Assembly (NCBI GenBank): GCA_934155625.1
Contig: CAKPHD010000001.1
Location: 932-64,931 of the forward strand
Reading direction: 5' to 3'
Length of the DNA stretch: 64,000 nucleotides
Source of the DNA: an uncultured Clostridia bacterium
GTDB lineage: Bacteria > Bacillota > Clostridia > TANB77 > CAG-508
Part shown: piece after piece, positions 14,861-57,228 of the stretch
Position numbering within the stretch: position 1 is the first letter of the stretch
How the letters are laid out: each line of letters opens with the position of its first letter
Position numbers and translations under genes: made by a program
Notes under the pieces: model-generated
Database searches by the model: none
What the model was told of the DNA's origin: nothing
What the model saw: only the letters and a program-made list of their open reading frames with translations

Positions 14861-15010
14861 TTTTGGTACTTTTGGGACCGGTTCTCTGCCGTCACATTTT
14901 TGGTACTTTTGGGACCGGTTCTCTGCCGTCACATTTTTGGTACCGTTGGGACCGGTTCTCTGCCGTCACATTTTTGGTACCGTTAGGACCGGTTCTTAAC
15001 CGTATCATTT
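14861..15010. repeat. Tandem array of 4 units of a 37-bp repeat, tttttggtac(tt/cg)t(t/g)gggaccggttct(ctgcc/taacc)gtcaca. No spacers.
   Basis: Read directly. Member of a dispersed family with 9 sites in the window. Confidence 0.85.
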
Positions 15011-15781
15011 TTACGCACCAACTATTGAAAAACCATTATCAACATGAATAATTTCACCTGTAATTCCTGATGACATATCACTAAAAAGGAAGCTTGTTGC
15101 ATCTCCAACTTGCTTAGGTGTTACATTTTGATGTAATGGAGCCTTATTCTCTACTTCATCTAATATTATGTTAAAATCTTTGATTCCTTTAGCTGATAGT
15201 GTCTTTATTGGTCCTGCAGAAATCCCGTTAATTCTAATTTTTGATTTTCCCAAATCTTTTGATAAATATCTTATATTAGCTTCTAAAGCCGCTTTTGCTG
15301 CGCCCATTACATTATATCCTTCAATAACTTTTTCTGCCCCATAATATGTATATGAAACAATGCTAGCTCCATCATTCAATACCTCTAACTCTTTAGCAAT
15401 TCTAGCCACGGCAACTAAAGAATATGCACTCACATCACAAGCATGAGCATACCCGCTTCTTGATGTCAAAATAAAATCATTCCTTAAATCTTCCGTATTT
15501 GCATGAGCAATTGCATGAAGAATTCCATCTACTTTACCATATTTTTCTTTTATTGCTTCAAAGCACTCTTGTATACTTTCATCTGAACTTGCATCACACG
15601 AAAAAACATCAGAATTCGGAATTTCATTTGTTAGCTCTTTTATTTTATTGATCTTATCTTTGGAACCACATGTAAAAATCACTTGTGCACCCTGCTCATA
15701 AGCTGATTGTGCAGCCCCCCATGCAATACTCCATTTATTTCTTATTCCCATTATTACTATTTTTTTATTTTTTAAAATCAT
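15011..15781 (-). CDS. fabI: Enoyl-[acyl-carrier-protein] reductase (NADH), FabI, an SDR-family enzyme
   Basis: 256 aa with an N-terminal Rossmann GxxxxxSIAxG motif and FabI-like catalytic Tyr/Lys spacing. Confidence 0.8.
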   Translation of the reverse strand: MILKNKKIVIMGIRNKWSIAWGAAQSAYEQGAQVIFTCGSKDKINKIKELTNEIPNSDVFSCDASSDESIQECFEAIKEKYGKVDGILHAIAHANTEDLRNDFILTSRSGYAHACDVSAYSLVAVARIAKELEVLNDGASIVSYTYYGAEKVIEGYNVMGAAKAALEANIRYLSKDLGKSKIRINGISAGPIKTLSAKGIKDFNIILDEVENKAPLHQNVTPKQVGDATSFLFSDMSSGITGEIIHVDNGFSIVGA

Positions 15782-15812
15782 TTTTCCCTCCTATTTCTTC
15801 ATTTAATTTTTA

Positions 15813-15920
15813 TTGTACTTTTGGGACCGGTTCTTAACCGTCACATTTTTGGTACCGTTGGGACCGGTTCTCTGCCGTCACATTTTTGGTACCGTTGGGA
15901 CCGGTTCTTATCGGTACACT
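15813..15920. repeat. Tandem array of 3 units of the 37-bp repeat. It overlaps the last codons of accA.
   Basis: Same unit as 14861-15010, in the same orientation. Confidence 0.85.
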
Positions 15921-16714
15921 TTTCTAAATTTTTTATATCTATTCTCCACTAAAATTTCAATATCATTTTTCGAATCAAACTTCAATTTATTAACACTCTC
16001 TATTATATATTTTTTTAAATCAGAGGCAACACTTTCAAAACCAGCTTGATGAGCTTGAACTCCATCATCAGGTTCTTCTATAATCTTGTCTATAATTCCC
16101 AGTTTCATCAAATCTTGTGCAGTTATCTTCATATTTTCAGCGGCTTCTTGTGCCCTTCCTGCATCTTTGTATAGAATACTAGCAAATCCTTCTGGAGAAA
16201 GTATTGAATATACTGCATTTTCTAACATGACTATCTTGTCTCCAACAGCAATTGCCAGAGCTCCTCCGCTTGATCCCTCTCCTATTACAACACATATTAT
16301 TGGAACTTTCAATCTTGACATTTCGAATATATTTCTAGCAATAGCTTCTCCTTGTCCTCTTTCTTCTGCTCCCATTCCAGGGTAAGCTCCCGGTGTATCT
16401 ATAAATGTTATTATTGGCCTATTGAATTTTTCGGCCTGTTTCATCAATCTTAACGCCTTCCTATATCCTTCTGGATTAGGCATTCCAAAATTCCTATCCA
16501 TATTTTCCTTTATGTTTTTTCCTTTTTGTTCTCCAATTACTGTAACTGGAATATCATCTAAAAATGCTATTCCTCCAACAATTGATTTATCATCACCAAA
16601 ATTTCTATCTCCATGTAACTCAACAAAATCTGTAAATATCTTATTTATATAATCAAGTGCCTTCGGCCTTTCTGACATTCTTGCTAAGCAAACTTTTTCC
16701 CATGCAGTTTTCAT
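15908..16714 (-). CDS. accA: Acetyl-CoA carboxylase carboxyltransferase subunit alpha
   Basis: 268 aa with typical AccA motifs (PGAYPGxGAEERGQ). Confidence 0.9.
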
Positions 16715-17716
16715 TTACGCCTCAACCCCCTTCTCCACAAAGATTTCCTCTTTATCGCGTTCGCTCTCAGTCATGTCTTTTTTTCTTGAATTTAATTTAT
16801 TTTGATTTTTATGCATTTTTAACATTTTATATAGAACTTCTTTCATCTCTTTTCTTTCTACAATCATATCAACAAATCCATGTTCAAGCAAGAATTCTGC
16901 CCTCTGAAAACCTTCTGGCAACTTCTGGCGAATTGTCTGTTCAATTACTCTAGGACCCGCAAATCCTATTAATGCATTCGGCTCTGCAATTATAATATCT
17001 CCTAGACTTGCAAAACTAGCAGTAACGCCTCCTGTTGTAGGGTCTGTAAGAACTGATATATATAACAACCCAGCATCATCATGTCTAGCTAATGCTGATG
17101 AAGTCTTCGCCATTTGCATAAGTGATACAATTCCCTCTTGCATCCTTGCACCTCCTGATACGCAAAATATTATTAACGGAAGTCTTTTTTCAATTGACGT
17201 TTCTATTGCTAATGTTATTCTTTCTCCAACAGCTTCTCCCATGCTTCCCATCATAAAATTTCCATCCATAATAGCAATTACCGCTTCTTCTCCATTGATT
17301 CTACAAATACCACATTTTACAGCTTCTTCTATCTTTGTTTTTTCTTTTAATGCTTCTACCTTTTTTAAATACCCTTCAAATTTTAATGGATCTTTGGTTA
17401 AAATATCTGCACCAATTTCTACAAAAGAATCTTCGTCTGCAATTTGTTTTATTCGTCTTCTTGCCGAAATTCTAAAGTGTTTGCCACAATTTGGACATAC
17501 ACTAAAATTATTGTGCACATCTTCTTTATATAATATTTCTTTACAATTGTCGCATTTTATCCATTTTCCAATTAACATATCTGATGCTTTTTCATTTTTT
17601 ACTCTTTTCTCAGTTTTATTTATTTTTCTGATTTTTTCAATTATCATTTTTTTCCGATGCACTTCCTCTCTACCATCATTCTTTTGTATTATATATTTCA
17701 CATTCCAAATTAGCAA
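16715..17716 (-). CDS. accD: Acetyl-CoA carboxylase carboxyltransferase subunit beta (start codon uncertain; the true start is probably internal)
   Basis: Zn-ribbon CxxC...CxxC followed by the carboxyltransferase domain. Directly upstream of accA. Confidence 0.88.
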
Positions 17717-17830
17717 TTAGACTGAATAGTCAAGTTAAAAACTCTTGACGTAGAGTCAAAAAAATATCACAATAATGATATTTCTATCAAAATTGTGATA
17801 TTTTCACATATATATCTTCCGATTTATTAA

Positions 17831-19264
17831 TTAAATTCTTACAATTCCTCCAAGAACTTTTTTATCTAAACCTTGAGAAAATGTTTGAGCTCCACCTAAA
17901 AGAACTACAACATCACCTTTTTCAAGGATTTCTTGTTCTTTTAATTTTTGAATTCCTTTTTCAACTGTTTCTTCAATTGTTTCTTCACCTTCAACAAATA
18001 CTGGAGTTACATTCCAAGCTAAAGCTAATTGGTGGAATGTTCTTCTATTATCTGTTACAGCTAAGATTGGGCATCCAGCTCCAAGTCCTGATAATGTTCT
18101 AGCAGAATCTCCTGTATGTGTATATACAACGATTGCATCTGCATTGAAGTTTTTAGCTGTTACACATGAAGAATAAGCAATTTTAGCTTCATCATCAGAT
18201 AAATCTAAATATTCATTATTGTCAAATCTCTTCCAGTAATGAATTTCTGGTTCAACTCTATTAGCTATTTTAACCATTGTTTGTACACATTCAACTGGGT
18301 AATCACCTTGAGCACATTCTCCTGAAAGCATTATTGCACTTGTTCTATCATAGATAGCATTTGCTACATCACTTGCTTCAGCTCTTGTTGGTAATGGTTG
18401 ATGTGTCATTGATTCTAACATTTGTGTAGCTGTTATAGCTGGTTTGAATAATTTGTTAGCTGTTCTAATAATTCTCTTTTGAACAACTGGTGGTTCTGTA
18501 AAGTCTGTTTCTGTAGCCATATCTCCACGAGCGATCATTTGAGCATCAGCTTCGTTAAGAATATCGTCTAAGTTTGATAAACCTTCAACATTTTCAATCT
18601 TTGTAACGATTTGGATATCTTTTCCACCATTTTCATCTAATACTTTTCTTACTTGTCTTATATCATCTAAGTTTCTTGCAAATGAAATTGCAACAAAGTC
18701 ATAATCATGTTCGCAAGCAGCTTTTAAATCTGCTATGTCTTTTTCAGCTAATCCTGGTAATCTGATAATTGTTCCAGGTAAGTTCATTGTTTTTCTGCTT
18801 CCTAAACCATTTCCATGCACAACTGTTGTAACTATATCTTTTCCAACAACTTCGTCAACTTTTAATTCAATTGCTCCATCATCTATTAAGATTTTTGTTC
18901 CTGGTTGTACATCTTTATATAATTCTTTATATGTTATAGAAACTTTTTCTTCGTCTCCTGTAATGTCTTCATTAACTAATGTGAATTTTTGTCCATCTTT
19001 TAATTGGATTTTTGTATTTTTTCCTGTATATAACATTCCTGTTCTGATTTCAGGACCTTTCATGTCTAATAGCAATGCGATTGGTAAATCTTTTTCTTCT
19101 CTTAATTTGATTATTGCTTCTGTTTTTTCTGATTGCTCATCCCAACTTCCATGTGAATAGTTGATTCTGCAAACGTTTAATCCTGCATCGAATAATTCTT
19201 CTAATTTGTTTTCACTTGCTGGACCGATTGTTCCTACAATTTTAGTTTTTCTTAAATTTTTCAC
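17831..19264 (-). CDS. pyk: Pyruvate kinase
   Basis: 477 aa, starting MKNLRKTKIVGTIGPAS. Typical PK barrel and C-terminal domain. Confidence 0.9.
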   Translation of the reverse strand: MKNLRKTKIVGTIGPASENKLEELFDAGLNVCRINYSHGSWDEQSEKTEAIIKLREEKDLPIALLLDMKGPEIRTGMLYTGKNTKIQLKDGQKFTLVNEDITGDEEKVSITYKELYKDVQPGTKILIDDGAIELKVDEVVGKDIVTTVVHGNGLGSRKTMNLPGTIIRLPGLAEKDIADLKAACEHDYDFVAISFARNLDDIRQVRKVLDENGGKDIQIVTKIENVEGLSNLDDILNEADAQMIARGDMATETDFTEPPVVQKRIIRTANKLFKPAITATQMLESMTHQPLPTRAEASDVANAIYDRTSAIMLSGECAQGDYPVECVQTMVKIANRVEPEIHYWKRFDNNEYLDLSDDEAKIAYSSCVTAKNFNADAIVVYTHTGDSARTLSGLGAGCPILAVTDNRRTFHQLALAWNVTPVFVEGEETIEETVEKGIQKLKEQEILEKGDVVVLLGGAQTFSQGLDKKVLGGIVRI

Positions 19265-19445
19265 TTTGAATTCCTCCTTAAATTTTTACAATTACTGCTA
19301 TTATACCATTTTTGTTGATGATTTATACAATTCATATCATACAATAGCTTTTTCACATTTTATAGTTTTTTGCTACTAATATAGCCATAAAGTTTCGAAT
19401 TTTAAAATTCAGCACAAAAACGCCTTAACGGCGTCTGTCATTTTA

Positions 19446-19631
19446 TTATTCTTCTACTTTTTTTGCAACTACTTCTTTTCCATCATAGTATCCACAGTTT
19501 GAACATACTCTATGTGGTAATACTGGTTCATGACAATGTGGGCAAGTAGCAAATTTTGGTTGTTCTACTTTCCATGTTGATCTTTTTGAATGTGTTCTAG
19601 CTTTTGACCATCTTCTTTTTGGTTGTGCCAT
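19446..19631 (-). CDS. rpmF: 50S ribosomal protein L32 (start placed at MAQPKRR)
   Basis: Zn-ribbon CPHC...CSNCG. L32-like length. Confidence 0.8.
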   Translation of the reverse strand: MAQPKRRWSKARTHSKRSTWKVEQPKFATCPHCHEPVLPHRVCSNCGYYDGKEVVAKKVEE

Positions 19632-19894
19632 CTTAATCCCTCCTCGCATAAGATATATGTATATATCTGTTCATTTTTTACTTATTAAAAATATTATCAT
19701 TTTCTAATATTGCTGTTTATAGCAAATTACAACTAATTTTGTCACTCTAAAATTATACAAGCATTTTTTCAATTTGTCAACAGCTTTTGGAAATTTTGTG
19801 CAATTTTTGCATAACTTTTATGTAATTTTTATAAAAACACTGAATATATTATAAAATGAGTAAATAAATTTATTTGATTGGAGGCTTTATTTAT

Positions 19895-30286: not shown

Positions 30287-31927
30287 TTAATAAAGTGAAA
30301 CCCTGAAACCGACGTAAGCTCCGCAATAGTCCGTACCTCCGTCGTAACGGTAGACTACTGAAAACGTGCTGCCATAGAGAGCGTAATCGCCACCTCGACT
30401 AACACAAGGACTGTTTGAATAAGAAGTATATTCAAGTGTCCATTCATCTACATTTCCTGCTATATCATATATTTCTTTTTTATTAAATGTTTCACTTGCT
30501 CCTGTTGATAATAATATCCTTGAATCTGAAGCTTTTGTTCCATATGCTCCATTTGTCCATCCTGAGCCATTTGGTGCATATTTAGAATTTGCATTTGTTA
30601 TATTCCATAAATTATTACTGTAATTTCCCCAATTTGTACTATTCGTCTTTAAATCTGCCTGTGCTGTTCCTTTTGTCTCTAAATATTTCAATACTAAATC
30701 CCATTGCACTCCAAACATTAAACTACTTGTATAATTTCCAGATTCCATATTACTTGCTAATGTTTGGGCTTGACTACATGTTACATTATTATATGGATAT
30801 GCATTTTGCTTTATTACTGGTATTTCTGTTGGTTTTGTTGATGATGAACCAGATGTTTTTGGTGAATTTTCTATTCCTGTTTCATATTTTCCTACATAAA
30901 ATCCTCCATTTTGATATACACTTTTTAACATCTTTTGTTTTAGCTCTGTATATTGTGTACTTGTTAATCCTGTTGTTGCATCTGAATAATATTCATCTTT
31001 GTATCCTGATTCTCTATAATCATTTGTATATGTGTGTAAATCTGTTTCTATTTTTGTATATTCATCAGCATTAAATGTTGTTATGTTTAGTCCTGCTGTT
31101 GGATATACTTCTGCTGTTTTTGGCACTTCTACCCACACATATTGATTTCCTTTACTATCTTGTATTGTTAATCCATTTTCTAATGTTGTTCCTTCTACTT
31201 GTGTAAAACCTGTTGGTAAATATGTTCCTCCTGTTGTTACATTATTCCCTTTAATCTCTTCATTTGCCTGATAAGAATCAATACTTAAAGTTATACTCAT
31301 TGCAGAAGTAGCATCTGGATTATCCATAAAATACTTGCCTACAATATATCCCCATTTCGAATCTAGCTCATCATTATCACCCGGCCAGTTAGCAGTCACC
31401 TTTAGGTATGCTCTATCTTTAGCAGCAACCTGTAAAGAATGTTCTATCTTCAAAGTAAATGGAAACTTTGTTAAATCATTTATTATTTCTCCTTTAGCTA
31501 TTTGCTCACCTGTTTCCTTATTCGTTTCAGTTGTAGGTTCAGATATATTTATATAATTTTCGGTCGATGGCTGTTTACCATCATGCACTACTTCATATGA
31601 CACTCCCGCAATCGTTATTGCTTGAATACTATAACTTAAATCAACTAATGCTTCACCATTATTTAAAATATCAACAGTTACAGTTTGCTCTTGCATCTGT
31701 GGATACAATGTTGGAAATTCAATTCCTATTGGATTTTCCTTTTTTTCATCCCCAATATAATATTCCATGTCCCATGCAGCAACATGCATATTTAAATGTG
31801 AATTTAAAACTTTGGTATATGCAAACCACGCAAATGTCGTCATTATAAACGCAAAAATGATTATTATATATTTTCGGGTTGTGTTCTTTTTATTAGCTTT
31901 TCTATACTTACGTAATAAATTTTTCAC
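30287..31927 (-). CDS. Secreted FGE-sulfatase-domain protein with a TasA-like N-terminal domain and AWF-type SipW-cognate signal peptide. GTG start. Paralogue of 546..2072; the N-terminal domain is a paralogue of 44114..44812.
   Basis: TTFAWFAYT signal. The N-terminal domain aligns with 44114..44812 (AWDMEYYIGDEK vs PWDVTYYVEDKE). C-terminal motifs RGGDYALYG...YVGFRVSLY. Confidence 0.75.
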   Translation of the reverse strand: MKNLLRKYRKANKKNTTRKYIIIIFAFIMTTFAWFAYTKVLNSHLNMHVAAWDMEYYIGDEKKENPIGIEFPTLYPQMQEQTVTVDILNNGEALVDLSYSIQAITIAGVSYEVVHDGKQPSTENYINISEPTTETNKETGEQIAKGEIINDLTKFPFTLKIEHSLQVAAKDRAYLKVTANWPGDNDELDSKWGYIVGKYFMDNPDATSAMSITLSIDSYQANEEIKGNNVTTGGTYLPTGFTQVEGTTLENGLTIQDSKGNQYVWVEVPKTAEVYPTAGLNITTFNADEYTKIETDLHTYTNDYRESGYKDEYYSDATTGLTSTQYTELKQKMLKSVYQNGGFYVGKYETGIENSPKTSGSSSTKPTEIPVIKQNAYPYNNVTCSQAQTLASNMESGNYTSSLMFGVQWDLVLKYLETKGTAQADLKTNSTNWGNYSNNLWNITNANSKYAPNGSGWTNGAYGTKASDSRILLSTGASETFNKKEIYDIAGNVDEWTLEYTSYSNSPCVSRGGDYALYGSTFSVVYRYDGGTDYCGAYVGFRVSLY

Positions 31928-32472: not shown

Positions 32473-32506
32473 TGGTACTTTTAAGAACCGGTCCCAACGG
32501 TACCAA
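32473..32506. repeat. Single unit of the dispersed repeat (ggtacttttaagaaccggtcccaacggtacc)
   Basis: The core gaaccggtccc is flanked by GGTAC inverted repeats. Confidence 0.8.
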
Positions 32507-33228: not shown

Positions 33229-33380
33229 GGTACCGTTGGGACCGGTTCTTAAAAGTAACAAAAAAGTACCGCAGAGAACCGGTCCCAAAAGTAACAAAAA
33301 AAGGTACCGCAGAGAACCGGTCCCAAAAGTAACAAAAAGTACCGCAGAGAACCGGTCCCAAAAGTAACAAAAAAAGTACC
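33229..33380. repeat. Array of 4 units of the dispersed 37-bp repeat (one forward, three reverse)
   Basis: Read directly. Confidence 0.85.
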
Positions 33381-35825: not shown

Positions 35826-35856
35826 GGTACTTTTGGGACCGGTTCTTATCGGTACC
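35826..35856. repeat. Single unit of the dispersed repeat between serS and engB
   Basis: ggtacttttgggaccggttcttatcggtacc. Confidence 0.8.
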
Positions 35857-41058: not shown

Positions 41059-41514
41059 TTATCTTTTTATCTTTGATATATCAATTATATTTTGCATTTT
41101 TCCTACATTTGGATCTCCTAATTTTTTAGATATTGTAAGATCAAATTGTGTTAATATATCAAGTAGTTCATTATGGTCATTTTTTCTATCTTTTTCGTAT
41201 TTTTCCCAGCACTTTTCGTTTCGTTCCCAACGTTTGTCATTTTCCTCCCAACGTTTGTCGTTCTCCTCCCAACGTTTGTCATTTTCCTCCCAACGTTTGT
41301 TGTTCTCCTCCCAACGCTTGGTATTCTCTGCCCATAGTCTTTTGTTTTCCTCCCAATGAGCATTCTCAATTTCTCTACTCTTTTGTATTTCTCTCTTATT
41401 TTCTTTTATCTCAGCTCTTAACTCATTAAAAGAAGCTGTTGTTTGTAATTGAAATGTATTTAATGCTTGTCCTAGTTGTAATACTTGTTCTAGTATTTGA
41501 TCATTGTCAACCAT
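41059..41514 (-). CDS. Hypothetical coiled-coil protein with 7 tandem 8-aa repeats (N/D)xKRWEEN encoded by 24-bp DNA repeats
   Basis: AAGGAGG RBS 8 nt before the ATG at 41514. Repeat DNA at about 41212-41360. Confidence 0.6.
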   Translation of the reverse strand: MVDNDQILEQVLQLGQALNTFQLQTTASFNELRAEIKENKREIQKSREIENAHWEENKRLWAENTKRWEENNKRWEENDKRWEENDKRWEENDKRWERNEKCWEKYEKDRKNDHNELLDILTQFDLTISKKLGDPNVGKMQNIIDISKIKR

Positions 41515-41726
41515 ATTATTAACCTCCTTAAAATTTTGATTCAATCTAAAAATAGATTTAATTATTATGATGTAAAACCTCATATTGAAAAAACAATAAA
41601 TATTTGAATATAAAATAAAAATATCATAAAAAATCTGTCTACATTATACATTCTCATTTAGCTATTGTCAAGAAAATTTTTTCGACAAATTTTGACTTTT
41701 TTATACAGATAAAAAACTTTCCAAAA

Positions 41727-41756
41727 AGGTACCGCAAAGAACCGGTCCCAAAAATC
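41727..41756. repeat. Single unit of the dispersed repeat
   Basis: ggtaccgcaaagaaccggtcccaaaaa. Confidence 0.75.
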
Positions 41757-41769
41757 CCTCATTATACTA

Positions 41770-41811: not shown

Positions 41812-43089
41812 TTAATTATTATCAGTACCAGCTTTGCTTAGTCCTACGTTAATTGTCATACCTCCACCAAGTGAAGCGTAGTTAATACAGTCAACGTCTT
41901 GTCCTTCTAGCCATACATACATTCTCATTTTTACATATTTACCAGGTGCTATAGAGAAATTAGAAGTACCATCTTTAGCACTTTTTAAATCAGTTACATT
42001 TTCAACTCCTGCATTAGTTGTTTGAACTGTATTTTGTTTTGTTAATCCATTTACAGTTGTTGTTGCTGATTTACAATCATAAATATCTTTGATACTTCCT
42101 ACTAAATCAGTTCTTCCATCTGTATCTTTTAGTTCTTTTGCAGTAAGTGATTTTGATGTTAAAGCATATGTTGGTAATGCTGTATCAGCAGCAAATTTTC
42201 CATTTGTAATTCCTGTTGGAGCTGTATTTCCTGTTGCAGCATCAAATGATAATCTGTTATTATTTGTTACTATGTAATCAACGTGTGCAGCATATTTTGT
42301 TACAGTTTGCTCTGTTTTTTCTTCTGCACCACTAGCATTTGGCTCCCATATAGTAGCATCTGTTATGTTCTTTCCTGATACTGCATTTAAAATTGCTTGT
42401 TGGCTTGAATCTGTAGCACCAACATCTACTGCTGAAGTATCATCAAATAATGCAAAAGCTACTCTGAATGAGTTTTGAACACCTGTTGATTCTTTTGATT
42501 TTGTTTTTAAATCAATACTTGAATTGGGTTCTAGTCTAAGATTGTCTCTAGTTCCTGCTGTAATAGCTGATGCAGCTGTAGAGTTCATTAAGAATAAATC
42601 AATAGCGAAATATCCTTTATCATTTATTGTTATATCTGCATCTGTAGCAATATTCTTAATACCAGTTAATTTTATACCTGATGTGTTTGTTCCTCTGTAC
42701 ATATTAAAGTCTTGTAATCCTATACCTTCTGTCTCTTGTGCTGTTGTTGAAACTGGTAATAATTCACTTGGAACTGCATTTTCACGTCCAGCATATGGTT
42801 TCTTTAAAGATAATTTGTCAGCATCTTGTTTTCCAACATTTTCTGTTGCAAAATATGATTCCATTCCTGTGTCTGACAAATCAATTTCGTTTGCCCAGTT
42901 CTTTCCGTCTAATGATACTTGTAGACCTTCTGCTACATTTACTTTACCATCTAGTCCACTTAATGTTACGTTTTTCTGCGTAGAGAACCACGCATATGTT
43001 GATACTATCAATAAGATAGCTGTGAATGCTACTAATAAAATTAGAGCATTTAATCTTTTTCTTGAGTCTTTTTGATTTTTTTCTCTCAT
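41812..43089 (-). CDS. TasA/camelysin-superfamily secreted protein with SipW-cognate signal peptide (STYAWFS), 425 aa
   Basis: N-terminal TM followed by the AWF motif. The C-terminal strand YVWLEGQD resembles TasA FEATQWNG. Confidence 0.65.
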   Translation of the reverse strand: MREKNQKDSRKRLNALILLVAFTAILLIVSTYAWFSTQKNVTLSGLDGKVNVAEGLQVSLDGKNWANEIDLSDTGMESYFATENVGKQDADKLSLKKPYAGRENAVPSELLPVSTTAQETEGIGLQDFNMYRGTNTSGIKLTGIKNIATDADITINDKGYFAIDLFLMNSTAASAITAGTRDNLRLEPNSSIDLKTKSKESTGVQNSFRVAFALFDDTSAVDVGATDSSQQAILNAVSGKNITDATIWEPNASGAEEKTEQTVTKYAAHVDYIVTNNNRLSFDAATGNTAPTGITNGKFAADTALPTYALTSKSLTAKELKDTDGRTDLVGSIKDIYDCKSATTTVNGLTKQNTVQTTNAGVENVTDLKSAKDGTSNFSIAPGKYVKMRMYVWLEGQDVDCINYASLGGGMTINVGLSKAGTDNN

Positions 43090-47834: not shown

Positions 47835-47968
47835 GAATTTTCCTCCTCTAATTTTTTGACAGTATCATATTCAGTATTTAAAAATTTTAGAAAACTTTCT
47901 ATTTGTTTTTGTACATCAAGTAATTCTTTATTTTCTAATTTTGATGTTTTAATATTTTTTATTTCCAA
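47831..47968 (-). CDS. Possible small ORF (45 aa, TTG or GTG start) translationally coupled (ATGA) to 46215..47834
   Basis: GAGGGGTGAG RBS. Its stop overlaps the downstream start. Confidence 0.3.
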   Translation of the reverse strand: MEIKNIKTSKLENKELLDVQKQIESFLKFLNTEYDTVKKLEEENS

Positions 47969-47985
47969 AAAACTCACCCCTCATT

Positions 47986-49198: not shown

Positions 49199-49200
49199 TT

Positions 49201-50325
49201 TTATTTTAACCTCACTTCTTTTGCCTGTAACATATATTTATCAATTCTATCTTTAAATCTATCTTCTATTGGTTTTAAAGATATTAATTTTCTAGTTTTC
49301 ATAACTATAAGCTTATCTGCTATCATCTGTTTTAAATCTTTATCAGATAAATCTGGATTAAGCTCAATTATTTTTTCTATTAAATTATCTGTTAATTCTT
49401 TCCTTGCTTTATTATCTTCTACCGCACTTTTTCTTTGTCCTTTTAACTTTTCTGCAACATTATTATTCTTAAATATTAAGTGCATTAAATAGATATTTTC
49501 ATCAACTAGTTTTTTTGCAATTCCTTTTTCTTCATATTCTTTATTTGCTTTTACAGCTTTATCTTTAATTTCCATCTGGTCACTTAAATAATTCCACAAT
49601 TTAAGTGCATATTGAAAATGTACGTTTTTAAGTAATACATTTGTCATTTTTATTGGAGATTTTACAAGTGTAACCCTTTTTGAATCGAGTAATTGATATA
49701 CTGGAGTTGTTTTTAAATCTTTTAATTTCTTTTTAATATCTTGAATTCTTTGTGCTGTTCCTACTGATTTTCTAACACTTGTAGGCATCTCTGCATCATA
49801 ATTAAAATTAACTTTAATTTTTTCTTTTTTATATTTTATTTCAGCCTGATAATTAGCTTTTTGTTGATTTTTTCCTTTATAATCTGTTTGTTGACCTTTT
49901 TCACGTAAATACATATAGTCTTCTATTAATTTTATAAGACTGTATAAAAAACGGTTCTCATATGTAATAAAAGTTTCTTCTTTATACGCATTTAATATTT
50001 TTTTAGGTATTACCTCACCTGTTTGTTGGTTAAATCTATCAACATAGTTTACATTTTTAGATAAATTTTTTACACTTTCTACTGTTACTTTTTTAATTAA
50101 CTCAATTTTTATTATTTCTTCTTCTGTAATAATGTTTTTTATCTCTTTTGTTAGAGCTTTCTCTATATGAGGAAGTGAAAACTCAACCATCTCTATCCAT
50201 TCATCATTCTCTACTATTTGATTTTTATTAACATCCACCATTAACTTTGAATCAACTTTATTAAGAAATTCCTGTGATGATTGTCCAGTTTCCATATTCG
50301 CAAGTTTTATTACATCTAAGTCCAT
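49201..50325 (-). CDS. Hypothetical protein (374 aa) immediately downstream of the AAA_5 ATPase. Putative partner subunit.
   Basis: No TM segment. K/E-rich. Gene order resembles ATPase-plus-partner pairs. Confidence 0.45.
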   Translation of the reverse strand: MDLDVIKLANMETGQSSQEFLNKVDSKLMVDVNKNQIVENDEWIEMVEFSLPHIEKALTKEIKNIITEEEIIKIELIKKVTVESVKNLSKNVNYVDRFNQQTGEVIPKKILNAYKEETFITYENRFLYSLIKLIEDYMYLREKGQQTDYKGKNQQKANYQAEIKYKKEKIKVNFNYDAEMPTSVRKSVGTAQRIQDIKKKLKDLKTTPVYQLLDSKRVTLVKSPIKMTNVLLKNVHFQYALKLWNYLSDQMEIKDKAVKANKEYEEKGIAKKLVDENIYLMHLIFKNNNVAEKLKGQRKSAVEDNKARKELTDNLIEKIIELNPDLSDKDLKQMIADKLIVMKTRKLISLKPIEDRFKDRIDKYMLQAKEVRLK

Positions 50326-50354
50326 TTTTTATATCCTTTCTACAAGCTTTTATT

Positions 50355-51908
50355 TTATGACATTTTTTTCAATCTTAATAAAAATTCTATACATTCTGCC
50401 ATTTTGCCTTTTCCAAAGTTTTTATCCAAGAAGTCTATGTATCCATCAATTTCATCTCTAATTAAAGCTAAGTTTAATCCTTCAAATTTTCTTAAAACTT
50501 TTTTAGCCATGAAATAATCTACAGCTTCTGTTTCGTCTCCACCACAAGCTACATAAACAGGTACGAATTTTCTCATATGTTTTACAATACGGTTACCAAA
50601 AGCAACTCTGAAGTGCTTAATTGTATAGTTATCCATGTCATCAATTTTCTTTAAAGTAGCTGGTGAAATTGCATAATCTACCATAGCTTTTTCGAATAAT
50701 CCATTTAAGTATGAATAATTTACATCAAGTGCATCAACATCATCTGGCTCAAATGCAATACCCTTTTCGTTGATATCTATAGGCATAGCTCTATCGTATA
50801 CCTTATCTGTTACCATGAATGTAGAGTCGTCGTTGTTGATTGTTCCGATATACCAAGCATTTGGTGGAATTTGTAATTTTCCTCTTATTAATTTTTTGGG
50901 GTCTGTTGGCCATGAGCTTTGTACAACTTCAATCTTCCAATCCTTTGTGCTGTGCATTTCTAGGATTGATAACATTTCTGCAAAATAGTACTCAACACGC
51001 GCTAAGTTCATCTCGTCTAGGATTACTGTAAATATTTCATCCGTATATCCAGCTTCATATAAATATGCTAAGAAGTCTGTCTCGTTAAACTTTTTAGTGA
51101 ATTCGTTTAAGTACCCAAATATATCTGTTCTATCTCTCCAAGAGGGCTGTACTGAAGCTACACAAGATGGGTGTTTTACAAAGTTACCCCAAGCAAGTGA
51201 TATAGAGGTCTTACCTGTACCAGAGATACCCTGTAGGATAACTAGCTTTGTTGAAGCTATAGCTGATACGAATAATCTTATCATCTTTTCACTATAATAC
51301 AATTTTAATTTACTTGCAGCAAAATTTCTGAATTTATAACAAAATTCTGGTAAAGTAAATGAATTGTGATAATCTTTTTGCTTATATTTTGCATATTCTT
51401 GATCTATTAATGTTAATTTAGAGAATCTGCTTTGGCTATTAGGGTCAATTTGTTCTTCATTATTTTCTTGTGATTGAGCAGCAGCATATGCAGCTCTATC
51501 AGCACCTGTACTTATTCCATTTGGATTAACACCTAATTCTGGAGTCTTCATAGATAATAATTTTAATTTTTCATCTACAAGCTCTTCCACTTGATCATTT
51601 AAAGTATCAATTTGTTTTAATAATTCTTCTTGGTCAATAATTTTCTTTCTCCATTTCATATGTTTCTTTAAGAAAAATACAATTATTCCAACTATACTTC
51701 CAATAACTACAAGCATACAAATAATAGCCAATCCTGTCAAAAACCATTCTGACATCTTAAAATCATTTGCATAATTTTGAATTATCAAATAATATTCTGG
51801 TACATTAAATATATTTAAAATACCTTTCCATAGTCCTCCAAATATCTCTCCAAAACCTGAAAAGAATTGGTGTAAAAACTCAAATAAAAATCTTCCGTAT
51901 GTTTCCAT
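50355..51908 (-). CDS. Membrane-anchored AAA_5 (MoxR/McrB-like) ATPase: N-terminal TM helices, coiled coil, Walker A GISGTGKTS, Walker B/sensor ILDEMNLA
   Basis: Motifs read directly. DEMNLA...YFAEM matches the McrB/MoxR DEINRA...FGEL pattern. Confidence 0.65.
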   Translation of the reverse strand: METYGRFLFEFLHQFFSGFGEIFGGLWKGILNIFNVPEYYLIIQNYANDFKMSEWFLTGLAIICMLVVIGSIVGIIVFFLKKHMKWRKKIIDQEELLKQIDTLNDQVEELVDEKLKLLSMKTPELGVNPNGISTGADRAAYAAAQSQENNEEQIDPNSQSRFSKLTLIDQEYAKYKQKDYHNSFTLPEFCYKFRNFAASKLKLYYSEKMIRLFVSAIASTKLVILQGISGTGKTSISLAWGNFVKHPSCVASVQPSWRDRTDIFGYLNEFTKKFNETDFLAYLYEAGYTDEIFTVILDEMNLARVEYYFAEMLSILEMHSTKDWKIEVVQSSWPTDPKKLIRGKLQIPPNAWYIGTINNDDSTFMVTDKVYDRAMPIDINEKGIAFEPDDVDALDVNYSYLNGLFEKAMVDYAISPATLKKIDDMDNYTIKHFRVAFGNRIVKHMRKFVPVYVACGGDETEAVDYFMAKKVLRKFEGLNLALIRDEIDGYIDFLDKNFGKGKMAECIEFLLRLKKMS

Positions 51909-51911
51909 ATT

Positions 51912-52952
51912 TTATTTCATCCTTTCGACAATTACATCATCACGTTTGATTTCTTTGTACAATTTTAAATCATTTGGTACAATAACTAATTTAAACATCC
52001 TTAATTTTTCTACATCATCTGCACTCTTTAAAGTGTCATCTAATGTAATTACAAAATTATAACCTTTTTTTATGTATTCAAGCACACTTTTTTGATTTTT
52101 TATATAATCTGCATATGTAATATTTAAAATAATTTTTTCTTGTAAAGCTTGATTTCCAATTAAAGATAAAATTCCATTTAATTTCTGTTTCTTTTTAAAT
52201 AAAGAACTTTCAAATTCAGCTATATAAGTATCTTTAAAATTCCCATTAATAATATCTCTAATTGCAACTGTACTTAATAATATATATTCAATTTGCAATT
52301 TATCTTCTGCAATTATTCCTTCAGTAAAAACCTTTTCTATTGCAGAATCACTGTATTGCATTGGCATTTTTATATTATGATTTAAATAAACATAATACAT
52401 TTCTTCGTTAAACTCGGTATTTTCAAACTCTAATGAAAATTCATCTGTATCAAATTTATCTAAATACACATCTTTTTCAATCATATCATTTTTTACTTCT
52501 TTATAAAGCTGTTCTTCTATGTCTTTTGGCTTTTTTACTTCATAATATGATTCTATTAATTCTAAGATTTTTTTGATAATTTCATGTAAACTATCAATTG
52601 TCTTAAAATTTTCAATATTTCTTACATTGTCAAAAAATAACACATATCCAAAAACTTCTTTAATAATGTGAATTAAATTCAATTTAGCTTGCTTTTCATC
52701 TAAAGTCTCAGACTCTTCTTCACATTTTTCCATTAAAATATCTTCTTTATATTCTAATTCATCTAATATTCTCAAATAAAACGCCCTAGCTGGCTTGTCT
52801 GTATTTCTTATATTATAATATCTAGCATTTATATATGTTTTTAAATATTCATTAACTAATTCTTCATTATAATTTGTGTTAAATATAATTTTCATATATT
52901 TTTTTATTTTTTTCTCTGTAAAATTCAAATATGTATCCATTAAATTGTTCAT
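51912..52952 (-). CDS. Hypothetical cytoplasmic protein (346 aa), first gene of the AAA_5 trio
   Basis: ORF 4 nt from the ATPase gene. Confidence 0.45.
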   Translation of the reverse strand: MNNLMDTYLNFTEKKIKKYMKIIFNTNYNEELVNEYLKTYINARYYNIRNTDKPARAFYLRILDELEYKEDILMEKCEEESETLDEKQAKLNLIHIIKEVFGYVLFFDNVRNIENFKTIDSLHEIIKKILELIESYYEVKKPKDIEEQLYKEVKNDMIEKDVYLDKFDTDEFSLEFENTEFNEEMYYVYLNHNIKMPMQYSDSAIEKVFTEGIIAEDKLQIEYILLSTVAIRDIINGNFKDTYIAEFESSLFKKKQKLNGILSLIGNQALQEKIILNITYADYIKNQKSVLEYIKKGYNFVITLDDTLKSADDVEKLRMFKLVIVPNDLKLYKEIKRDDVIVERMK

Positions 52953-52968
52953 TTTCTGCCCCTTTCGA

Positions 52969-53036
52969 TGGGACCGCTGGGACCGGTTCTTTGCGGTACC
53001 TTTTTGGTACTTTGGGGACCGGTTCTTTGCGGTACC
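52969..53036. repeat. Two units of the dispersed repeat
   Basis: gggaccggttctttgcggtacc, twice. Confidence 0.8.
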
Positions 53037-53620
53037 TATTCTACAATTTGTTTTGCATTTATGTCTAATTTTATATATTCCATTATATCTGCATATTCTT
53101 CATATAAATAATTTTCTTTTGGAAATTTTACTTTTATAACAAAGCTATCAGTTTCATCTACTCCTTGTTTCATTTGGTTCTCATCTAATGATATCTTTTT
53201 ATAATATGTTCCATCATCATCTGTAATTATTTCTTGTTGAGCATTTAAAATTTGGCCATTTTTTACAATTTGATATTCTAATGGTAAATTAGTTGTCATT
53301 GTAAGTGTAATTCCATATTCTAAATCAGTTTCTGCTCTTTTACTAATATTTCCATCTTCTTCTTTTTTAAAATTTGATACAGAAAATGTATAATCAAATG
53401 AATTATCTGATGGATATACATCTTTTATTACAATTTTTCCTGTTTTAAAGTCATCATTTACTATCCAAAACGCAACATCTAGGTCTTTATCTGATGTTGC
53501 TGTTGTTTCATATTTAGCTAATGTTCTTCTTATAAGAATTATTGCTATTATTATTATCGCTATTAATAAAAGTACTAAAAGACTTTTTTTAACTTTCTTT
53601 TTATCAAACATTTTCATCAC
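53036..53620 (-). CDS. TasA/camelysin-like secreted protein (194 aa)
   Basis: Signal peptide followed by TLAKYET. Confidence 0.6.
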   Translation of the reverse strand: MMKMFDKKKVKKSLLVLLLIAIIIIAIILIRRTLAKYETTATSDKDLDVAFWIVNDDFKTGKIVIKDVYPSDNSFDYTFSVSNFKKEEDGNISKRAETDLEYGITLTMTTNLPLEYQIVKNGQILNAQQEIITDDDGTYYKKISLDENQMKQGVDETDSFVIKVKFPKENYLYEEYADIMEYIKLDINAKQIVE

Positions 53621-54128
53621 CTGTTTTCTCTTTGTATGAAACCAGTAATATAAATAAAATAACTGTTATACTAATTGGTATTATTACATGTACATCTGAA
53701 AATACTTTTTTCCATATTTCAACATTATTCACAATAAAAACGGTTCTACCAATAACTTCATCTTTTTTTATAGGCTCATCATATGTATTATTAAAGTCAC
53801 CTTTTGCGATTATGGTATCTCCATTTATATTTACTATTCTATGTGTAACTAACACATTTTCTTTTTGGTATGTTATAATATCATTTTCCTTTATTTCATC
53901 ACCTATTTTGATTATTACAATATCACCTTTTTCGATTGTTGGTGACATACTTCCAGTTTCTGTGCTAAGTACTGAATAGCCGAATATATCAATATATTGC
54001 TTGTGTTGTACATTTAATTGAATAAATCCCCAAATAGCAATAATGGCAATGATTCCTAATATAAATATTATTAAATTTACTATAATTTTTTTTATAACTT
54101 CAAATACTTTATTATGCTTCATTGCCAA
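53604..54128 (-). CDS. Signal peptidase I, SipW/S26B type (fourth copy)
   Basis: ETGSMSP, VTHRIVNI, C-terminal TM. Confidence 0.7.
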   Translation of the reverse strand: MAMKHNKVFEVIKKIIVNLIIFILGIIAIIAIWGFIQLNVQHKQYIDIFGYSVLSTETGSMSPTIEKGDIVIIKIGDEIKENDIITYQKENVLVTHRIVNINGDTIIAKGDFNNTYDEPIKKDEVIGRTVFIVNNVEIWKKVFSDVHVIIPISITVILFILLVSYKEKTGDENV

Positions 54129-54753
54129 TCCTTTCTCCTGTATATTGCTTAAAGTTTATCTCTAGAGGTATAGATATTTTTGCATTTTCAGTTTGTCCCA
54201 ATTCTGAATCTGTTGCATTATTTTCTTCAACATTTGCCCACTCAAAATATAATCTGACATAATTTAGATATTTGTCATTTATTTTTGATATTGGAATTAC
54301 TGCTTGATGTTGGTGTTCAGCCAATACAGTATTAATTTCTGTATTAGTAATTTGCTCTGTTCCTCCATCTTTTTTGAAATAATTTTCTACTTTAACTAAA
54401 TTCATTTTTGCAGTTTTGACATCATCTAATTTTAGATTAAGTGTATATAGAATAGACACATCTGTATTTGTTGGATCTATTAGTATATCAAAATATGCTT
54501 GTGTTCCAGGTGCTACTTTTTGACTTTTTACACGGGCAGAATCAATGTATGTTAAATTGTCTTCTGTCATTGTAAAAGTTGCATTTTCTCCACCATTAGA
54601 TATATCTACTCCATTTACTTTTATAGCCCATACACCTAATAAATTGGTATAATCTCCTTGTAGTTGGTCTTTGTATAATGCATACATATTTGCTATTTGG
54701 AACAAAGATATAATTAACATTATTAATACTAAAACTGTTAATAATTTCTTCAT
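54112..54753 (-). CDS. TasA/camelysin-like secreted protein (213 aa), paralogue of 47986..48624
   Basis: WAIKVNG, YFDILID, LYFEWANVEEN, INFKQY. Confidence 0.65.
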   Translation of the reverse strand: MKKLLTVLVLIMLIISLFQIANMYALYKDQLQGDYTNLLGVWAIKVNGVDISNGGENATFTMTEDNLTYIDSARVKSQKVAPGTQAYFDILIDPTNTDVSILYTLNLKLDDVKTAKMNLVKVENYFKKDGGTEQITNTEINTVLAEHQHQAVIPISKINDKYLNYVRLYFEWANVEENNATDSELGQTENAKISIPLEINFKQYTGERIGNEA

Positions 54754-55581
54754 TTATTTTTCCTCTTTTGCAGATTTTGTTGTTTTGGTTGTTTTTGTTG
54801 TAGCCTTTTTAGGCTTTGCTGTAGTTGCTGATTTTGTAGTTGTTGTCTTTTTTGCAGTTGTCTTTTTTGCTGATGTTTTTGAAGTTGTACTTGCTTTTTT
54901 TGTAGTTGCTGTTTTTGATGTAGGAGCTTTCTTTGTTGTAGTTTTCTTTGCTGGAGCTTTTTTTACAACTTTTACTTCTTGAACCTCTTCTTCATCTTCT
55001 GTTTCTTCGTCTTCAGAATCATCTTCATATTCTACTTCTACAGCTTCTTTTTCACGTTTCTTTTTCTTATCTCCAAGATATTTAATTTCCATTACTAAAT
55101 CAAATACTTCTTGTAAGAATAGTAATAAAGAAACAATTACTACGCAGAACAAGTATCCCCATTTAGATTCTAATAAGTTTAAAATATATCCCCATCCTTC
55201 TATAACTACTGTATCACTTGTTTTTCCTATAAAATAGTCATTTGCATAACTTTCTTCATTTTCAACAGCATAAATTATATGGCTTCCTTGTTGTGTTTTT
55301 TCTTGTAAAGTTCTACTTACAACTTCATATTGTTGGCTATTAATTACTTTATATAGTAATATTTCATCTCCACTTTTAACATTTCTGTCATTTGTTTTTT
55401 TGATTAATAATATAGATCCTTGTTTATATTCAGGTTCTAATGAATCATCTTTTACTATATAAACAGTATATCCTCCTAATTCACTATTATTATAGTCATT
55501 ATATGACAATAACAATACTGTAACTGTAATTGCAATTATGGCATATAACACAAATAATATACTACCTAATGCTTTTTTCAT
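54754..55581 (-). CDS. SipW-like S26B paralogue lacking the catalytic His (VVSRT in place of VTHRV), with acidic and K/T-rich C-terminal tails. Probable pseudo-peptidase.
   Basis: DDSLEP Ser box present, His box substituted, C-terminal low-complexity KKTT repeats. Confidence 0.55.
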   Translation of the reverse strand: MKKALGSILFVLYAIIAITVTVLLLSYNDYNNSELGGYTVYIVKDDSLEPEYKQGSILLIKKTNDRNVKSGDEILLYKVINSQQYEVVSRTLQEKTQQGSHIIYAVENEESYANDYFIGKTSDTVVIEGWGYILNLLESKWGYLFCVVIVSLLLFLQEVFDLVMEIKYLGDKKKKREKEAVEVEYEDDSEDEETEDEEEVQEVKVVKKAPAKKTTTKKAPTSKTATTKKASTTSKTSAKKTTAKKTTTTKSATTAKPKKATTKTTKTTKSAKEEK

Positions 55582-55618
55582 ATTTATTCTCCCTTTCTTT
55601 TGTCTATTATGTTTTTTA

Positions 55619-56080
55619 CTACTCTTGTCCTTGATCTTGTTCTTGTATTGGTTCTAATTTTATTCTTTGTGTAGCTGTCATATTTCCTTTGTAGATTACA
55701 CTAATTTCACATTCTTCTCCAACGTCTAAATCTGTATTTGTTCCTGTTCTCATTTGTCCTAATACATTTTCGTCACCATCAATTAATATAGCATTAAATT
55801 CTTCATCTGCAACTTTTTTAGAAGTATTATTAATTATTCTCATTGTTACCATTGTTCTGTCTTGATCTTTTAAATATTCCATATATATTTTTTGTGCATC
55901 CATTCCACTTTCTGTAGTTGTTTCTGGTAATGGAACCACTTGTTCTTCCTCTTGAGTAGAATCTTCTGTTTTGCCTTTTTTATTTTTATTTACTACAACA
56001 ATAGTAATAATAACAACAATTGCTATAATTATTGCAATAAATGTAATTAACATTTTTTTACCTTTTCTTACCTTTTTCAT
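55619..56080 (-). CDS. Small N-terminally anchored membrane protein (153 aa)
   Basis: Single N-terminal TM segment. Confidence 0.45.
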   Translation of the reverse strand: MKKVRKGKKMLITFIAIIIAIVVIITIVVVNKNKKGKTEDSTQEEEQVVPLPETTTESGMDAQKIYMEYLKDQDRTMVTMRIINNTSKKVADEEFNAILIDGDENVLGQMRTGTNTDLDVGEECEISVIYKGNMTATQRIKLEPIQEQDQGQE

Positions 56081-56261
56081 CTTTTTCCTCCTTTTTATCT
56101 AATATATTTTATACCATAACTTGTTTTAAAAGTCTATAGTTTTTATATAGTTTTTAACAAGAAATTTTTTTACATTTTTACTATTTATTGGAACCCTCAA
56201 AACACAAGTTATTTCTTGCATAAATTAGGTTCCATAAATATTTTTTATATTTAACTAGTAG

Positions 56262-57129
56262 TTATTTGTTTGTCACATTAACAACCGCATTCGCATCTCC
56301 GGAAGGATAAGTATAATCTTTGGACATATCAACTTTATAAAATTTAATATACTGTGTAGACTCTTTATTCATATTAAAAGTATATTTTTTTACATACCCT
56401 TTCGAATCTGTTACTTCACTTCCTGCAACCCTGTTCACATAAGAATCATCTGCTAAATCAACTCTTACTACATCAGAATCAAACTCTATAGTTACAGGAT
56501 TTCCACTATCTTGTGCATTTACAACTTTTAGCACAGCATAATTTCTATTTGCAACATCATCTATAGTATAAGTATTAACAGTCTCCTGTTGCACCCTTAA
56601 AACAACCTCACAAGAAATCTCTTTTTGATAAGGAACCTTAGTGCTAGCCTTAATCTTTACTCTAATAGTCTGATTTTTCTCAATTGGGCTTTTTGGAGTA
56701 ACCATTACCATAACTTTACTAAGATTATTTACAACATCTCCTATTTTAGCATATATAACTCCAGTTGTAGAAGTAAGTCCATCAGCTGCATTAATACCGT
56801 AGAGTTACTTTATCAGCATCAGGAGTTTCGCAAGAAACTGAATAATCCAAATCATACTCCATTCTGCTTAAAGTATTAGCATAACTATATAAATCAAAGC
56901 TTATATTATATGTATCAACACCTCCCCAATCCTCATATTGATATGTTGGATTGTTAAGTGTCAATAAATTACTGGTAAAATAAAACTTTCTTGAAGTAAA
57001 ATAAGCTTCTCTTATTCCATTATAAACATATCTTCCAAAAACTGATAATGTCACTATTATAATTAAAATAAATATTACTATAGCAATTTTAAATTTATTT
57101 AATTTTCTATGTCTTTTTGTTTTATTCAT
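56262..57129 (-). pseudogene. TasA/camelysin-like gene split by an apparent frameshift at about 56790 (ORFs 56791..57129 and 56262..56711). The N-terminal part carries a signal peptide and REAYF motif.
   Basis: The downstream frame is open right up to the upstream stop. There is no RBS or start for the second part. Confidence 0.5.
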
Positions 57130-57148
57130 TAGTTAATTAATCCTTTCT

Positions 57149-57228
57149 GGTACCGTTGGTGGTACCGTTGGGACCGGTTCTTTGCGGTACCAAAAATATG
57201 GTACCGTTGGGACCGGTTCTCATCGGTT
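57149..57228. repeat. Two to three units of the dispersed repeat between the giant gene and the next gene
   Basis: ggtaccgttgggaccggttct, twice. Confidence 0.8.

Follow-up and report, generated by a model that had tools for sequence, protein, structure and literature searches.

A 64-kb stretch of contig CAKPHD010000001.1 from an uncultured Clostridia bacterium (hereafter the window) carries 21 units of a short GC-rich repeat spread over nine sites (S1-S9), and these units represent a genuine family or superfamily of small hairpin repeats, interspersed in the genomes of uncultured gut Clostridia and not described before. On balance, we think it probable that they are copies of a lineage-specific, non-autonomous, selfish element, comparable to the repetitive extragenic palindromes (REPs), bacterial interspersed mosaic elements (BIMEs) and BOX repeats, which is moved by a trans-acting protein and amplified by slippage. 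A search of both strands with the core GGGACCGGTTC, allowing at most one mismatch, recovered 21 matches in the window and none in 100 dinucleotide-preserving shuffles. A covariance model built from 60 distinct units of six genomes, and run over the window with its filters off, likewise returned exactly 21 units at 35.5-47.5 bits. As the next-best match in the window scored only 14.4 bits, the model finds no decayed copies elsewhere in it, the stretches up to 14.8 kb and beyond 57.3 kb being free of units. The window has a GC content of 29.4%, against 48-68% for the units. All nine coordinates proposed in an earlier, sequence-only reading of this DNA were recovered by both searches.

When oriented on the core, every unit is 31 nucleotides (nt) long and comprises a 9-nt left arm, a 12-nt core and a 10-nt right arm. 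The length of 37 bp given previously counts the A/T spacer in addition to the unit proper. Tandem Repeats Finder describes the longer arrays as follows:
S1, 14859-14996, period 37, 3.7 copies
S2, 15821-15910, period 37, 2.4 copies
S3, 20108-20216, period 38, 2.9 copies
S5, 33251-33380, period 35, 3.6 copies
The left arm reads GGTACCGTT or GGTACTTTT, and the right arm TTGCGGTACC in single and double copies, CTGCCGTCAC in S1-S3 and CTGCGGTAC in S5. The right arm of the S1-S3 subfamily contains CCGTCAC, so that its arms are only imperfectly inverted. The core GGGACCGGTTCT had been taken for a palindrome. It is asymmetric, with only ACCGGT palindromic within it, and the conserved element is instead the loop of a hairpin: columns 11-20, comprising the loop and inner stem, along with G27, are invariant across the 60 units. 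The units occur alone or in head-to-tail arrays of two to four, separated by 0-8 bp of A/T; 20 of the 21 in the window are singletons or direct head-to-tail copies, the sole inverted junction being in S5. A variant end unit, AAGACTGGTMC, is confined to S3 and some arrays of the CAKOYU genome, all other arrays ending in ordinary units. With no unique spacers and nine dispersed loci, the arrays are, as recognized before, not clustered regularly interspaced short palindromic repeats (CRISPR).

Several results point to the unit being a hairpin with a conserved loop, as judged from sequence comparisons, and not a double-stranded palindromic site. In an alignment of the 60 units, 76.9% of the cells of a 13-pair hairpin can pair, as against 69.0% upon shuffling, with none of 500 shuffles reaching the observed value (the effect of shared ancestry is taken up below), and 37-54% when the partner column is slid. 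Among the arm mismatches, 50 are G.T and 11 are A.C, an excess which indicates that the GGGACC strand is the folding strand, with the caveat that base composition favors T.G. Related families display dissimilar yet complementary arms, namely TGGGAAAAT/ATTTTCCCA, TCGGGATTG/CAATCCCGA, TGTCCCAAAA/TTTTGGGACA, TGTTCATTT/AAATGAACA and GGTACCG/CGGTACC, all of which enclose GGGAC(N)GGTYTY. The feet of the stem vary between species, arm replacements across species are fully compensatory, and the core change from GGGACCGGTTCT to GGGACAGGTCTC converts two G.T pairs of the inner stem to G-C. Such freely varying, complementary arms around an asymmetric conserved center are not explained by a dimeric protein binding duplex DNA. 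As DNA, lone units fold with -2.8 to -6.9 kcal/mol (z-scores of -0.4 to -4.0).

The family extends well beyond the window, to which it might have been confined. A scan with the exact pattern, covering one genome per species, found it in four low-GC gut metagenome-assembled genomes (MAGs) classified as 'uncultured Clostridia':
CAKOYU01, Hadza
CAKPDZ01, Hadza
CANRQH01, rabbit
OV788638.1, a complete 1.55 Mb chromosome
The relatives in these genomes retain the 9 + 12 + 10 nt geometry and an unchanged core at periods of 31-33 bp, with several repeat sites per 8-kb locus and species-specific arms (TGCGCA, TGTACAA/TTGTACA, TGTCCAA/TTGGACA and TGTTCATTT/AAATGAACA). Core variants distinguished in the wider family are GGGACCGG, GGGACGG, GGGACAGG and GAGATCGC. 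Lone matches in high-GC genomes (loci L005, L007, L009, L010, L011 and L014) were discarded as chance. So were eight viral matches, all of them lone and situated in coding DNA of 44-70% GC; the plasmid and phage collections gave no match to the motif, and a full-text literature search for the core 10-mer retrieved only unrelated primers and guide sequences.

A metagenome scan anchored on FabI yielded 80 loci with 64-90% FabI identity, of which a single one, L037 (FabI 90%), carries the core, the other 79 being without it. Units are present in L037 at the positions corresponding to S1, S2 and S3, in numbers and orientations that differ from the window, and all arms of this locus are TGCACCG/CGGTGCA at the very positions where the window has GGTAC arms. 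In the sister species represented by the L034 group (FabI 89%), the S2 and S3 sites are empty and the fabI-rpsO spacer holds two to five units of the form TGCACACGT-GAGATCGCTTTT-TTTCGGTGCA; this homologue keeps the 31-nt geometry and is identical at 8 of the 12 core positions, and a second sub-family is also found there. The same spacer in L044 (FabI 83%) is occupied, at 7770-8040, by yet another family (GGGACACCC; GTTACCAGTAGGGACACCC...) in the form of a large inverted duplication, whose two inverted copies lie about 100 bp apart and amount to a large potential cruciform. More distant loci carry single or inverted-pair units, given here as left arm, core and right arm:
L052: TGTCCTTTT, GGGGACGGTTCT, TTTTGGGACA
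L053: TGTCCCAAAA, GGGACGGTTCT, TTTTGGGACA
L100: TGGGAAAATA, GGGACAGGTCTC, ATTTTCCCA
L103: TGTCGCCATA, GGGACAGGTCTC, ACGCCGACA
L050: TCGGGATTG, GGGGACGGGTCTT, CAATCCCGA
Judged by these alignments, the clade-wide constant is a GGGAC(N)GGTYTY core set between arbitrary but mutually complementary arms.

The nine sites of the window, with gene identities taken from precomputed Pfam hits of strain contigs and one Pfam scan, and with ORF and RBS standing for open reading frame and ribosome-binding site, are as follows:
S1, 14865-15006, plus strand: four head-to-tail units of period 37; the array lies between the fabI stop, 4 nt away, and the rpsO promoter region, with rpsO about 140 nt downstream
S2, 15814-15918, plus strand: three units between accA and fabI, ending 32 nt before the RBS and start of fabI
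S3, 20105-20211, minus strand: three units, plus a degenerate fourth (GGCACGGAAAAGGACCAGTCTTGGTAC) at about 20086-20104, inside an asnB-like gene
S4, 32474-32504, minus strand: one unit between two convergent genes, a 93-aa ORF, whose canonical terminator hairpin precedes the unit, and bofA
S5, 33229-33368, one plus-strand then three minus-strand units: periods of 35-38 with A5-A7 spacers
S6, 35826-35856, plus strand: one unit; the serS stop lies 1 nt before it and the engB start 24 nt after
S7, 41728-41758, minus strand: one unit with an unrecognizable left arm, 53 nt past the stop of ORF 41812-43089
S8, 52970-53036, plus strand: two units that exactly fill the interval from the stop of ORF 53036-53620 to the RBS of ORF 51912-52952
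S9, 57161-57230, plus strand: two units running from the stop of a giant ORF (1 nt away) to the RBS of ORF 56791-57129
S5 has the start of a DUF2508 gene on one side and the stop of a Na/Ca-exchanger gene 13 nt away on the other, and S9 is preceded by an extra left-arm copy, TGGTACCGTTGG, at 57148-57159. A stop codon lies no more than 13 nt from the end of seven of the nine arrays, and eight of the sites are extragenic or overlap nothing more than a stop codon. The location at gene 3' ends and operon junctions proposed earlier is thereby upheld for most arrays, as is the flanking of fabI on both sides; what had been missed is that S3 lies inside coding sequence. The suggestion that the repeats mark the boundaries of accessory modules does not agree with their neighbors (rpsO, fabI, accA, bofA, the DUF2508 gene, the Na/Ca exchanger, serS and engB), which share no common function, or with the position of S8 and S9 within one operon of unannotated genes.

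The asnB-like gene deserves separate treatment. Its single frame on the plus strand extends from 19895 (MCGIVGF..., with a GGAGG site) to 21847, with a 132-nt block (S3 and the degenerate fourth unit, 20086-20215) separating GGKQPM from IIVYNGQIYN. This block keeps the frame but holds in-frame TAA, TGA and TAG codons, and thereby divides the gene into two parts:
19895-20134, plus strand: N-terminal fragment, MCGIVGF...GGKQPM with a unit-encoded tail, having its own GGAGG RBS
20216-21847, plus strand: C-terminal part, from IIVYNGQIYN... to the stop
Where the block sits, the intact orthologs of L034 and L044 encode a variable loop, 12-13 codons long. In L037 the boundaries are exactly those of the window and enclose two units, in a block of 79 nt that is one base out of frame; its upstream frame is free of stops, and it is one A short of being open. 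The degenerate unit of the window retains a GCACGG arm of the L037 type. The shared boundaries and this arm point to a single ancestral insertion and argue for an array that would predate the split of the window species from that of L037 (dS about 0.85). In a comparison of the two by the Nei-Gojobori method, the synonymous (dS) and nonsynonymous (dN) distances and their ratio omega were:
asnB C-terminal part, 543 codons: dS 0.85, dN 0.023, omega 0.027
asnB N-terminal part, 63 codons: dS 0.95, dN 0.031, omega 0.032
fabI control: dS 1.12, dN 0.054, omega 0.048
Apart from the block, the gene is free of stops and frameshifts in both the window species and L037, and two S3-bearing haplotypes of the window species are distinguished by five synonymous changes and a single altered codon. 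By the measure of its codons, then, the asnB-like gene is still used, with both halves under strong purifying selection. In the L034 group (L034 at about 1306-1394, and also L035, L036, L041 and L105) the frame of the ortholog shifts 29 codons before its end, which could reflect a genuine frameshift or a shortened C-terminus.

Selection reaches right up to the array, with the 32 codons that follow it (20216-20311) displaying seven synonymous differences and one nonsynonymous difference. Together with the low omega, this implies that translation of the second part must start at or before 20216. No ATG, GTG or TTG occurs between the last stop of S3 and 20312, and the first in-frame GTGs (20312 and 20348) correspond to GTT and GTA in L037. 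The simplest reading is that the enzyme is split, translation of its second piece beginning at AUU or AUA or by re-initiation. It is also conceivable, but in our estimation very unlikely, that the intragenic units are neutralized on expression, the array being skipped by the ribosome or eliminated, either from the mRNA or from the expressing cell's DNA. Ribosomal skipping has precedents in gene 60 of phage T4 and the mitochondrial 'byp' elements. A search across S3 for pairs of take-off and landing codons or for a single slippage revealed nothing consistent in the window, and L037 would open by the loss of one A; an mRNA structure joining the ends of S3, of the bulge-helix-bulge or IRE1-like kind, folds no better than shuffles (z -0.64 and -1.13). 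A protein search with the joined N-terminal region of AsnB retrieved only fragments of 130-229 aa with 57-79% identity. If skipping or removal were true, it would represent a bacterial mobile element tolerated in coding sequence without killing the gene. The identical stops of five strains make phase variation of asnB unlikely, and an alternative genetic code is rejected as all three stop codons occur in S3.

Units have also entered the coding sequences of the acetyl-CoA carboxylase genes accA and accD. In the window, S2 supplies the last three codons and the stop (15908-15910, within its last unit) of accA, whose product ends in RYKKFRK|VYR*, as against RYKKFRK|IGQSELV* in L034 with its empty S2 site. 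The accD (16715-17716) and accA (15908-16714) genes of the window are separate and abut each other. In L034, in contrast, three 33-bp units (array 6057-6155) fuse them into one ORF of 593 codons (5163-6944), and this fusion recurs in six contigs of the group (L034, L035, L036, L039, L041 and L105). Here the units stand in place of the tail and stop of accD and the start of accA, and are read in frame as the linker NCTEKKRSQVC NCTEKKRSQVC NAPKKSDLKCA.

Contigs from other samples that encode identical proteins belong to the same species, at 97.5-100% identity. S1 has four, three or one units in different strains with identical flanks, and S6, with near-identical flanks, has one unit in window-type strains and two in seven contigs of another strain group. 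Array length thus changes between strains by complete units. Strains differ at S5 in poly-A length and by point differences. The unit number is constant at S2, S3, S4, S7, S8 and S9, with one-base differences in S3 and S4; the structure of S3 is common to five strains, and S8 is identical in seven strain contigs and S9 in five to seven. Between species, occupied sites are common only to close relatives, and the same spacers are re-used by different family variants in different species. All copies in one genome carry the arms of that genome, even at inherited sites, which is the mark of concerted evolution.

We envisage the following course of events for an element of this kind. A unit, in which a stem of 7-10 bp of free sequence is capped by a conserved inner stem and loop (GGGA-CNGG-UYUY), would fold once the GGGACCGGTTCT strand becomes single-stranded, for instance at replication forks. 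A co-evolving protein acting in trans, for which an HUH/RAYT-like enzyme (RAYT, REP-associated tyrosine transposase) is the likeliest candidate, could then read the conserved loop and copy or move units to new sites or beside existing ones, while slippage or unequal exchange would alter the length of the arrays. Insertions survive where little damage results, namely directly after stops, in stop-to-RBS gaps, in the tails of genes and within a variable surface loop, and effects on neighboring genes would be by-products. The conserved loop, covarying stem, tandem amplification and concerted change of stems are what would be expected of an active, co-evolving protein partner.

Several observations weigh against this proposal. 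The arrays run directly head-to-tail, unlike the classical inverted arrangement of REPs. The hairpins of the units are only modestly stable, those of the S1-S3 subfamily fold poorly, and the common ancestry of the units of one genome inflates the covariation test based on shuffles. The differences in unit number at S1 could partly stem from collapse of short-read assemblies, which cannot apply to S6 (71 bp). Within one species no clean pair of empty and filled sites was found that would reveal a target duplication; L035, tried as an empty site within the L034 group, is not a clean case, since whole-gene content differs. Finally, tblastn searches with IS200 TnpA and the Escherichia coli RAYT gave no match at E < 0.03 in 1.33 Mb made up of the window and the loci, a biased sample below one genome equivalent; this weak search thus offers nothing in favor of the association with IS200/IS605 transposases that had been suggested.

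Of the rival explanations, host-selected arrays of binding sites, with the core as landing site of a global regulator or of a nucleoid or segregation protein and the tandem units serving cooperativity, are in our view unlikely. The core is indeed invariant across species, GGNACCGNT sub-repeats recur at S8, S9 and L020 with a spacing of about 9-12 bp, close to one helical turn, and many arrays lie just upstream of an RBS. However, the neighboring genes are functionally unrelated, it is stop codons and not promoters that adjoin the arrays, the sites are not conserved beyond close relatives (with 79 of the 80 FabI loci lacking the core), and some arrays are inside coding sequence; moreover, the freely varying complementary arms are left unexplained by a dimer on double-stranded DNA. 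The array of binding sites for a host regulator that had been considered earlier thus fits poorly.

A minisatellite-like spread without dedicated machinery, driven by recombination, gene conversion, slippage and horizontal exchange, we hold to be unlikely. The strain-variable unit number, the concerted change of arms in each genome, the re-use of spacers between species and the lack of a transposase in the above search are all in keeping with it. Nevertheless, recombination does not explain how unrelated sites, including the codon block of the asnB loop, came to be colonized, or why a constant loop should persist with changing stems across species.

An element acting at the level of RNA, as transcript stabilizer, processing site, attenuator, terminator or small RNA, appears unlikely to us, such roles being on record for some REP and BOX elements. 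In its favor, the stem covaries while the loop is conserved, one strand is enriched in G.U-compatible mismatches, intra-operon arrays lie between a stop and the next RBS, and beyond the gene ends at S5 and S7 a hairpin and T-run are read in sense. Against it, at five of the nine sites (S1, S2, S3, S8 and S9) the strand that folds better runs antisense to the resident genes, and the sense strand of S3, as noted, folds no better than shuffles. Arrays within transcription units have the orientation that gives the weaker mRNA fold, without a U-tract, and the T-run is on the antisense strand at five of the nine sites. Terminator-like matches are not enriched (8 versus 6.4 expected), and those of S1 and S2 fall on the plus strand while the genes are on the minus strand, so that we rejected intrinsic terminators of the resident genes. 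No tRNA gene occurs in the window and no Rfam family matches it at the gathering score, so the repeats are not part of tRNA or rRNA flanks; at permissive E-values S1, S2 and S9 gave weak, generic miRNA-hairpin matches far below threshold.

The remaining identities are readily dismissed: a ToxI-like type III antitoxin array by the nine dispersed loci and neighbors such as rpsO, fabI, accA, serS and engB, and lox/FRT-like sites, parS or Noc-binding (NBS) sites and uptake sequences by an anatomy of constant core, varying arms, direct tandems and exclusion from coding DNA. Of the two classes named in the sequence-only reading, the REP type is the better supported, by a short imperfect palindrome, GC-rich in an AT-rich genome, that is sited at gene ends, strain-variable and lineage-specific. 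The miniature inverted-repeat transposable element (MITE) is not supported: the units do have inverted arms, but no insertion sequence (IS) was found in the window, there is no parent IS with the same ends, no target-site duplication could be read, and the length, at 31 bp and not 50-500 bp, is as atypical of MITEs as the GC content of 48-68%.

The favored comparison, that with REPs, can be drawn more closely. REP, BIME and REPIN-RAYT systems (REPINs being doublets of REPs) are those of Enterobacteria and Pseudomonas (PMC3116915, PMC3337134, PMC5581495, PMC3479197), and the mechanism envisaged above is the one assumed for REP/REPIN-RAYT systems (PMC3116915, PMC3479197, PMC5581495). Our family resembles REPs, imperfect palindromes of 20-40 bp, in its many extragenic copies per genome, after stops and within operons, and in forming a species-specific sequence class that evolves as a population within the genome; inverted doublets as in REPINs are seen in L037 (at the S2 equivalent), L052 and L100. 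Unlike REPINs, the units of the window are mostly direct head-to-tail copies and not alternating or inverted pairs, and the conserved part is the loop and inner stem (GGGACCGGTTCT), with no 5' GTAG head. Furthermore, REPIN-RAYT systems have been described mainly in Proteobacteria (PMC5581495), whereas the present host is a low-GC Firmicute; the above search over 1.33 Mb found no RAYT. With the pneumococcal BOX element the family has in common a Firmicute host, a tandem module (boxB in the pneumococcal element) that varies in number between strains, an intergenic location, a hairpin, the lack of a known transposase and the alteration of genes (PMC3049150). However, BOX modules of 45-59 bp come with boxA and boxC ends, as against a single type of 31-bp unit here, and there is no sequence similarity between the two. 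Hence, membership in either REP/REPIN-RAYT or BOX is not established. The Rickettsia palindromic elements likewise insert palindromes inside protein genes while sparing the gene, as do the in-frame units of accD-accA in the L034 group (PMC10969869). Those elements are, however, about 100-150 bp long and typically in frame and translated, whereas the asnB insert of the window holds three stops and most copies are intergenic. Mycobacterial interspersed repetitive units with variable numbers of tandem repeats (MIRU-VNTR) also form dispersed tandem arrays in operon spacers that vary in number between strains and overlap stop and start codons, but their units of 46-100 bp are not palindromic and have no conserved hairpin loop.

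Small interspersed hairpin repeats have been studied in depth in Proteobacteria (REP/REPIN-RAYT) and in pneumococci (BOX, RUP and SPRITE). For the uncultured Clostridia of human and animal guts, with their small genomes and low GC content, we know of no such repeat on record. If the proposal of a co-evolving partner is right, that protein could be found by phylogenetic profiling across MAGs. Further, the interrupted asnB, still under selection, and the accD-accA fusion show that such elements can remodel coding sequence, and the former poses a testable question on the expression of an interrupted gene. On the practical side, the S3 array misleads gene callers into calling asnB as two genes, and the arrays can serve as VNTR loci for strain typing. 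They also break short-read assemblies, as in the 913-bp Logan contig L024, which corresponds to window 14955-15867, contains only fabI and ends within S1 and S2.

Other features of the window merit brief mention. The gene order beside rpmF-pyk (19264-19874) is variable: the window has asnB-rpmF-pyk-accD, L022 has secY-rpmF-pyk-accD-accA-fabI, and L025, from the same sample, has asnB-rpmF-pyk-der-plsY-gpsA, which suggests rearrangement or two copies of rpmF-pyk. S8 and S9 are contained in a long block of co-directional genes on the minus strand (41812-63888) with almost no Pfam matches, which includes two S24/S26 peptidase-like genes, a DUF2357 gene and the giant ORF; the latter exceeds 2200 aa in the window, and in other strains is called at up to 7227 aa with DUF285. 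ORF 41059-41583 (minus strand), which encodes a small protein without a Pfam match, contains at 41225-41356 a separate 21-bp coding tandem repeat that specifies WEENDKR-type heptads. Lastly, ORFs 546-2072 and 30287-31927, both on the minus strand, are paralogs with near-identical C-terminal regions of about 300 aa (GTYLP.GF.QV.GT.L.NGLTI.DS.GNQYVWVEVPKT...), and locus L013 of a related MAG aligns to both of them.

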